From Escherichia coli (GTDB lineage Bacteria > Pseudomonadota > Gammaproteobacteria > Enterobacterales > Enterobacteriaceae): 63,217 bases of DNA. Within the stretch, counting starts at the first letter, position 1; each line of letters starts with the position of its first letter. Below the pieces are notes generated by a model that did no database searches, had not been told where the DNA came from, and saw only the letters and a program-made list of their open reading frames with translations. Shown in pieces: positions 39,438 to 39,815 of this stretch. Where the stretch lies: assembly GCF_003334255.1 (NCBI RefSeq), contig NZ_QOWU01000026.1. One strand, given 5' to 3'. A program made the translations under genes and the position numbers.

Positions 39438-39815
39438 TCACTCTGACAATTCGTTGATCAAGTCACGGTATTTATTCAGTTCTTGCAACGCCTTACATGC
39501 ACCCTCCCATCGTTTCTGTTTCCGCCCGGCGCGGCGCGCTTCTTTCCGTGATTTACGTAGCAGGTCACCTATAATGTTGTGCTGAACTGGCTGAACTGGC
39601 TGAACTGGCTGAACTGGCTGAACTGAATCAATATCTGTTTTGCTTCCAACTCCCTCTACTGCCTGCCAGATGCCGTTTTTTACCTTTACGATCCCCTGGT
39701 TTTTCAACTTCCACAGCGTATCAATGACGTCATTCAAATCAATATTGAGACCTTTAGAAATGCTGTCGGCTGTTGCTTTTCCTAATTTGTTCAATTCTGT
39801 GAGTACGGCGTTCAT
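39438..39815 (-). CDS. Hypothetical DNA-binding-like protein with (VQP)n linker
   Basis: 125 aa ORF; internal DSVQPVQPVQPVQPVQ encoded by a 9-bp tandem repeat; basic C-terminus. Confidence 0.5.
   Translation of the reverse strand: MNAVLTELNKLGKATADSISKGLNIDLNDVIDTLWKLKNQGIVKVKNGIWQAVEGVGSKTDIDSVQPVQPVQPVQPVQHNIIGDLLRKSRKEARRAGRKQKRWEGACKALQELNKYRDLINELSE
39583..39626. repeat. 9-bp tandem repeat (CTGAACTGG x ~5), in-frame within CDS
   Basis: gctgaactggctgaactggctgaactggctgaactggctgaactga. Confidence 0.85.

Follow-up and report, generated by a model that had tools for sequence, protein, structure and literature searches.

In-frame VNTRs located in disordered linkers are common and well understood, and bacterial examples in coding sequences are used in MLVA typing. 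The array described here resembles these typing loci in its perfect head-to-tail units, in the gain and loss of whole units, and in a unit length divisible by three. Unlike the VNTRs used in MLVA, it is carried on a mobile prophage module and is therefore confined to the gene-bearing fraction of complete E. coli genomes, 304 of 5426. We found no published description of this repeat, or of its place in any MLVA scheme, in the literature searched, which did not include the original MLVA primer tables. Simple-sequence contingency loci, e.g., those of Haemophilus and Neisseria, produce phase variation by repeat slippage. Similar to these, the present locus has a hypermutable tandem repeat within a gene, for which slippage is presumed; however, a 9-bp unit cannot shift the frame, and the locus therefore lacks on/off switching. 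A phase-variable on/off contingency locus was accordingly rejected, as the 9-bp unit lies within the ORF and preserves its frame. Bacterial regulators also contain "Q-linkers", Gln/Pro-rich flexible linkers between domains. The repeat likewise encodes a Gln/Pro-rich, predicted disordered tether of ~25 residues between two modules, but differs from Q-linkers in being an exact DNA repeat that is length-polymorphic within a species. Taken against these known systems, the array is an ordinary length-variable repeat, with no new mechanism indicated.

The array lies in a stretch of E. coli DNA of 63,217 nucleotides (referred to as the window). Position 1 to ~37,750 of the window is E. coli chromosome (carrying evgAS, emrKY, dsdA, dsdX, and dsdC), which is 100% identical over 4.1 kb to that of strains G1/2, G6/7, and G8, and matches to phages start at ~37753-37806. 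The repeat gene neighbours xis and int in a lambdoid prophage of the Phi24B/PA2 type, for which tRNA-Arg (argW) is the insertion site, and the features of this region are as follows.

37757..37828, minus strand: tRNA-Arg gene (argW), the left boundary of the prophage (Rfam tRNA; annotated by dsdC in identical chromosomes).
37949..39193, plus strand: tyrosine integrase gene, in opposite orientation to xis (phrog_1; RefSeq annotation of identical modules).
39177..39359, minus strand: AlpA-type excisionase gene (xis), the next gene downstream of the repeat gene and on the same strand (phrog_66).
39438..39815, minus strand: DUF1627-family gene of 125 aa plus stop, with an ATG start (ORF, PF07789, phrog_1888, RefSeq orthologues).
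39444..39575, minus strand: conserved basic C-terminal helical module, aa 81-124 (AlphaFold2, invariant columns, Pfam match).
39576..39659, minus strand: predicted disordered linker with the array, aa 53-80 (AlphaFold2, hypervariable length in the family alignment).
39581..39625, minus strand: perfect 9-bp tandem array of 5.0 copies (Tandem Repeats Finder, sequence, and motif search).
39582..39623, minus strand: (VQP)4VQ codons, residues 65-78 (translation and unit parsing).
39660..39815, minus strand: predicted N-terminal winged helix, aa 1-52 (AlphaFold2, Foldseek, and HTH profile hits to TrmB/TFE/Csa3).
39822..39826, minus strand: Shine-Dalgarno sequence AGGAG, 6 nt upstream of the ATG (read from the sequence).

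Tandem Repeats Finder reports a single array at 39581-39625 with period 9, 5.0 copies, 100% matches, no indels, and a score of 90, and the raw sequence agrees with the unit it calls, GCTGAACTG. On the coding strand this unit is CAGTTCAGC, which in codon phase becomes GTTCAGCCA. If the array is read in the phase CTGAACTGG, its first unit is at 39582, and four exact units are followed by CTGAACTGA at 39618-39626, so that the fifth unit ends in A, not G. The initial annotation had placed five units at 39583-39626; the five copies are indeed present at the DNA level, while the coordinates were off by one base. It had further described the array as an in-frame repeat encoding VQP units, and this agrees with the coding strand, TCA (GTT CAG CCA)x4 GTT CAG CAC, whose translation within the minus-strand ORF 39438..39815 is S-(VQP)4-VQ-H (residues 64-79).

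A search with the two-unit 18-mer, allowing up to three mismatches, returned 4 matches, compared to 0.05 expected from dinucleotide shuffles. Further, a perfect 45-nt tract of period 9 involves 36 forced matches, for which the expectation is ~63,217 x 4^-36 = 1e-17 per window if uniform base composition is assumed. A chance origin of the array is excluded. The whole window contains 11 tandem arrays, and besides the 9-bp array only one of them is perfect. A motif search found no further copy of the 9-mer unit in the prophage part of the window; its sole extra match, at 8213, is in chromosomal DNA.

The repeat-bearing ORF matches phrog_1888 (unknown function) in PHROGs with an E-value of 2e-72, and its orthologues are named "DUF1627 domain-containing protein" in RefSeq. 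In Pfam, aa 54-121 match PF07789 (DUF1627) at model positions 88-153 of 155 (E = 3.7e-7, 30.5 bits), which is a partial coverage of the model, and residues 5-48 weakly match the TrmB winged-helix family (E = 2e-4). The structure predicted by AlphaFold2 from a shallow alignment of 12 sequences (mean pLDDT 74, pTM 0.40) has three parts. At the N-terminus is a winged helix in the order H-strand-H-H-strand-strand, with helices at 2-11, 16-23, and 27-39 and strands at 43-46 and 49-52 (pLDDT 78-84). A disordered stretch follows, in which pLDDT falls below 50 at residues 55-67 and 72-76 and which includes the VQP array (65-78). The C-terminal part consists of a long helix (81-115) and a short one (117-124) with pLDDT of 80-87, and 11 of the 17 residues at 86-102 (LRKSRKEARRAGRKQKR) are K or R.

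When searched against PDB with Foldseek, the model matched winged-helix proteins only (AspA, MarR, OhrR, Zalpha, and TFE; probability 1.0, E >= 8e-3), and superposition on AspA, PKZ Zalpha, MarR, and OhrR gave 52-58 aligned columns with rmsd of 0.8-1.6 A (E 8e-3 to 3e-2). Searches of PDB and BFVD returned no match to the whole-protein fold; the matches are generic winged-helix ones over the first 50-60 residues, none of them with E <= 1e-3. The initial annotation had proposed a linker between a DNA-binding-like N-terminal region and a basic C-terminus. All three parts of this proposal are supported as predictions: the N-terminus by the TrmB-type HTH match in Pfam and the winged-helix matches in Foldseek (E 8e-3 or weaker), the linker by the low pLDDT between the confidently modeled winged helix (1-52) and the confidently modeled helix (81-124), and the C-terminus by the K/R-rich segment. 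Our most likely guess is that the protein is a small nucleic-acid-binding accessory protein.

Several more specific assignments were considered and rejected. A Zalpha domain was suggested by marginal sequence and fold matches, but its signature residues are not conserved: in a profile comparison with the vaccinia E3 Zalpha (1oyi, E = 0.013), the family has hydrophobic residues in the Asn column, Trp in place of Tyr, and a deletion of the Pro-Pro, and retains only the wing Trp. The arginine-rich RNA-binding motif of lambda N has RRA followed after 5 residues by W. The DUF1627 family has 6 residues between RRA and W, i.e., a different helical register, and the resemblance is a loose one only. 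Membership in a defence system was rejected, with PADLOC giving weak HTH matches to Csa3/CasR only. Paralogy with the neighbouring 143-aa ORF (40646-41077), which has a basic tail too, was also rejected, as the two do not align and belong to different PHROGs.

Relatives of the protein are few, with only 14 at E <= 1e-3 among 1.8 billion representative proteins. In the family alignment of 12 sequences, which share 26-91% identity, the N- and C-terminal modules are conserved. M1, L8, L34, G41, and W50 are invariant in the former, and R94, R95, A96, A109, and L113 in the latter, the consensus of which is LRRAK..VQKWERVCAALRELNKHRDI. A profile built from this alignment matches only the repeat-bearing ORF in the window. 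The middle regions have nothing in common: they range from a few to ~130 residues, are non-repetitive in distant members, and in some include a second HTH-like domain. A close homologue, P0011 (76% identical to the query in the family alignment, 68% by BLASTP), has no full VQP unit.

The likeness to DUF1627 (PF07789) thus lies in the C-terminal motif (RRA...W...C.AL.ELNK) together with the N-terminal winged-helix module. At 125 aa the window protein is shorter than the 155-position model, and the Pfam match includes only its C-terminal half. Compared to the DUF1627 members of 167-260 aa, which have a non-repetitive and sometimes two-domain middle, it has a VQP-repeat linker. Distant members are also found in a different context, after replication genes in the nin region, whereas the window gene is located by xis and int. 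Another database protein, P0026 (106 aa, not in the window), contains two copies of a P(V/T/M/I)QP...IQRSMIGDLLKN-type segment, which resemble the array together with the beginning of the C-terminal module but have non-synonymous unit variants.

From the tRNA gene, the gene order in the prophage is int, xis, the repeat gene, a DUF1382 gene, an MT-A70 methyltransferase gene, the 143-aa ORF of unknown function, and an antirepressor gene, ahead of which are isrK and C4-type RNAs. The int-xis-DUF1627 module opens many Stx2a-converting phages with at least 99% identity, including PA2, Stx2a_F451, VT2phi_272, ArgO145, and Stx2-converting phage 86. In Phi24B, int is inverted and xis is positioned for control by the leftward early promoter, and the Xis of this same module type has been validated experimentally (PMC3064807). 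Based on gene order and the Phi24B literature, the repeat gene is probably co-transcribed with xis from the leftward early operon. We found no expression or function for the repeat-bearing ORF in the Phi24B papers. Phage 933W has a different int module, and the repeat-bearing gene is absent from its first 6 kb, the region where relatives carry it. The DUF1627 gene is also found with integration modules of the wrbA type, and some int-xis modules lack the DUF1627 gene. Because of this mosaic distribution and the different context of the distant homologues, an obligatory partnership of the DUF1627 protein with Int/Xis was rejected.

Some observations concern the neighbouring genes themselves. The integrase ORF at 37949-39193 probably starts too early, as the identical integrase is 1170 bp in RefSeq; the Phi24B integrase starts with TTG (PMC3064807). 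The DUF1382 ORF (39851-40147) is probably also too long at its start, since it is 213 bp in RefSeq and phrog_292 covers residues 35-96 of its 98 aa; as listed, it shares 125 nt with the methyltransferase ORF. The window carries an intact MT-A70 DNA methyltransferase gene (40023-40649) two genes up from the repeat gene. Independent IS hits have split this gene in other genomes: IS150 in G1/2, G6/7, and G8 (L039, L040, and L041, around 11180-12620) and IS1203 in O157 Vac_07.1 (L045 5595-7534). Rfam places isrK at 41971-42049 and a C4 antisense RNA at 41860-41945, both on the minus strand and directly upstream of the antirepressor ORF 41128-41835, and a promoter with an 11/12 match is found at 42085-42056. 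Together, isrK, C4, and the antirepressor resemble a c4-ant immunity module of the P1/P7 style, situated in the early-left part of the lambdoid prophage. Two other RNAs in the prophage are above the Rfam gathering score, sRNA-Xcc1 at 50665-50753 on the minus strand (69.5 bits) and STnc100 at 62696-62912 on the plus strand (149 bits).

Another tandem repeat is located downstream of the Q antiterminator, where toxin phages have their stx genes. It is a perfect 7-bp repeat, GACCAGC x 11.0 (59227-59303, score 154), in the non-coding gap between a hok/sok module and a gene encoding a 653-aa BcgI-like methyltransferase/restriction protein (59394-61355). The hok/sok module (58719-59043), likewise downstream of Q, pairs a sok RNA (58719-58893, 118 bits) with a Hok-like ORF of 51 aa (58888-59043). 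In PhiR12_3 (L052 2678-3258) the same place is occupied by 83 perfect 7-bp copies, with flanks 100% identical to those in the window. The GACCAGC array is a far more extreme VNTR than the 9-bp array. Given its place ahead of a gene of the restriction-modification type, it may serve for phase variation or for the tuning of expression.

To compare the 9-bp array among relatives, we surveyed 42 related loci with a readable array among the matches listed, of which 35 are IMG/VR viral contigs and 7 are complete E. coli chromosomes. These loci encode 1-9 full VQP units followed by VQ, and always differ by whole 9-bp units, with array lengths of 24-96 nt. Their proteins are 117-141 aa in length and otherwise collinear, and the ORF is kept in all of the readable loci except L036, which is frameshifted upstream of the array. 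A sample spread across the 304 complete E. coli genomes with the gene has gene lengths of 354-423 bp, which change in 9-bp steps inside each lineage, and similar length steps are found in Stx phages. The initial annotation had expected copy-number change to keep the frame, which is the pattern seen in all 42 loci, and had named a repeat number invariant in all relatives as evidence against its claim; the number ranges from 1 to 9. Frameshifted DUF1627 alleles, i.e., L036 (1501-1868) and the protein P0016, read ...KNQISPQCSQCSQCSQCSTTL or end in ...SAASAAQHYR, and may be either pseudogenes or sequencing errors.

The arrays fall into two lineages. Lineage A has the flank ...GVGSKTDIDS and 2-9 units of GTTCAACCA or GTTCAGCCA, while lineage B has the flank ...EVDKKPNIA(S/P) and 1-9 units of GTGCAGCCA. 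The unit variants are all synonymous: GTTCAA/GTTCAG-CCA in lineage A and GTGCAGCCA in lineage B both encode the peptide VQP. Lineage A alleles other than that of the window have a CAA-type block followed by a CAG-type block, often closing in GTGCAG, and their length differences are mostly in the CAG block. The window allele, although of lineage A, has only CAG-type units, five in number, hence its perfect 45-nt tract.

Closely related genomes allow array length to be compared with point substitution. Over the 13.1 kb compared, G1/2 is identical to G6/7 and G8 save for one extra 9-bp unit in G1/2. Between the window and G1/2, G6/7, and G8 there are 4 SNPs, one IS150 insertion, and a difference of 2-3 repeat units. 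Eight genomes that are 0-11 SNPs apart pairwise in the 2.3-kb tRNA-int-xis-DUF1627 module have arrays of six different lengths, with no indel elsewhere in the module; O157:H7 SS52 and Vac_07.1 have 0 SNPs in this module and are one unit apart. On the other hand, ~13 related Stx2a phage records share one array length, and the mutability is therefore moderate, not extreme. Judged from these sequences, the whole-unit allele pattern is the signature that would be left by a VNTR changing by whole-unit slippage.

We therefore regard the array, with good though not full confidence, as an in-frame VNTR that is driven by slippage, that encodes a length-tolerant linker between domains of a prophage DUF1627 protein, and that is probably nearly neutral. 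The alleles suggest that slipped-strand mispairing or short-homology unequal exchange during prophage or phage replication would add or remove 9-bp units. As the unit is a multiple of three, the reading frame would be kept in every product, and as the spacer is flexible and Gln/Pro-rich, most lengths would be tolerated; with the frame kept and lengths tolerated, alleles would accumulate as a near-neutral length polymorphism. With each unit, the tether between the modules would lengthen by three residues, or roughly 1 nm in an extended chain. Length tolerance of the linker appears from the unlike linkers of distant relatives, from P0011, from the frameshifted alleles, and from the mosaicism of the gene. 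The near-neutrality of the length alleles is assumed.

The same mutability could instead be selected. The array would then be an "evolvability" tuning locus, with a hypermutable tether setting the reach of the winged helix from the C-terminal basic/oligomerising helix of an xis-adjacent early regulator, and it would let populations of Shiga-toxin-type prophages vary heritably, reversibly, and quantitatively in their excision, their spontaneous induction, or their interaction with the host. The high rate of change relative to point substitution is consistent with this, and so is the position of the gene directly upstream of xis on the same strand. So too is the encoding of VQP by different codons in two lineages with no non-synonymous unit variants seen, which hints at some constraint on the peptide, although with two variant sites only, both would be synonymous by chance with a probability of ~0.07 (7 of 27 possible substitutions are synonymous). 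However, the unrelated, non-repetitive linkers of distant homologues, 10-130 residues in length, and the absence of full units in P0011 argue against such a tuning locus. The gene is also separable from the int/xis module in both directions, its distant members are placed after replication genes, and the frameshifted alleles (L036 and P0016) suggest that it is dispensable for prophage carriage. We consider a selected tuning locus unlikely.

Two readings in which the protein plays no part are less probable still. The units might act in cis as protein-binding sites (recombination-directionality or iteron-like) or as a structural DNA motif, with their coding being incidental. Their perfect periodicity and their location near the integration module, at a distance of ~1.8 kb from the tRNA-gene attachment junction, would fit such a role, but the unit is absent from the rest of the prophage (the extra match at 8213 being chromosomal), and the array is always in frame within a conserved ORF with a good Shine-Dalgarno sequence. 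Moreover, the unit DNA differs between the lineages while the peptide is the same, and 1-9 copies are hard to square with a defined binding architecture, which together leave a cis element very improbable. As short repeats are sometimes miscounted in draft assemblies, the array might also have been produced by errors of assembly or sequencing, or be a low-complexity tract due to chance and without biological variability. This is excluded by the array lengths of 24-96 nt, which are shorter than ordinary reads, and by a variation that recurs in many independent complete genomes and phage records with lineage-specific unit patterns. A slippage-driven, length-tolerant linker VNTR remains the reading we prefer.

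The array is the fastest-changing site in a module common to many Shiga-toxin-converting and related prophages. Since it separates strains otherwise identical over 13 kb, it could be a cheap marker for subtyping Phi24B/PA2-type prophages, and its 9-bp length differences could mislead alignment-based SNP pipelines. For the widespread, uncharacterised DUF1627 family, the array marks the boundary between two modules joined by a linker that tolerates roughly 15 to 45 residues, which is useful for construct design.
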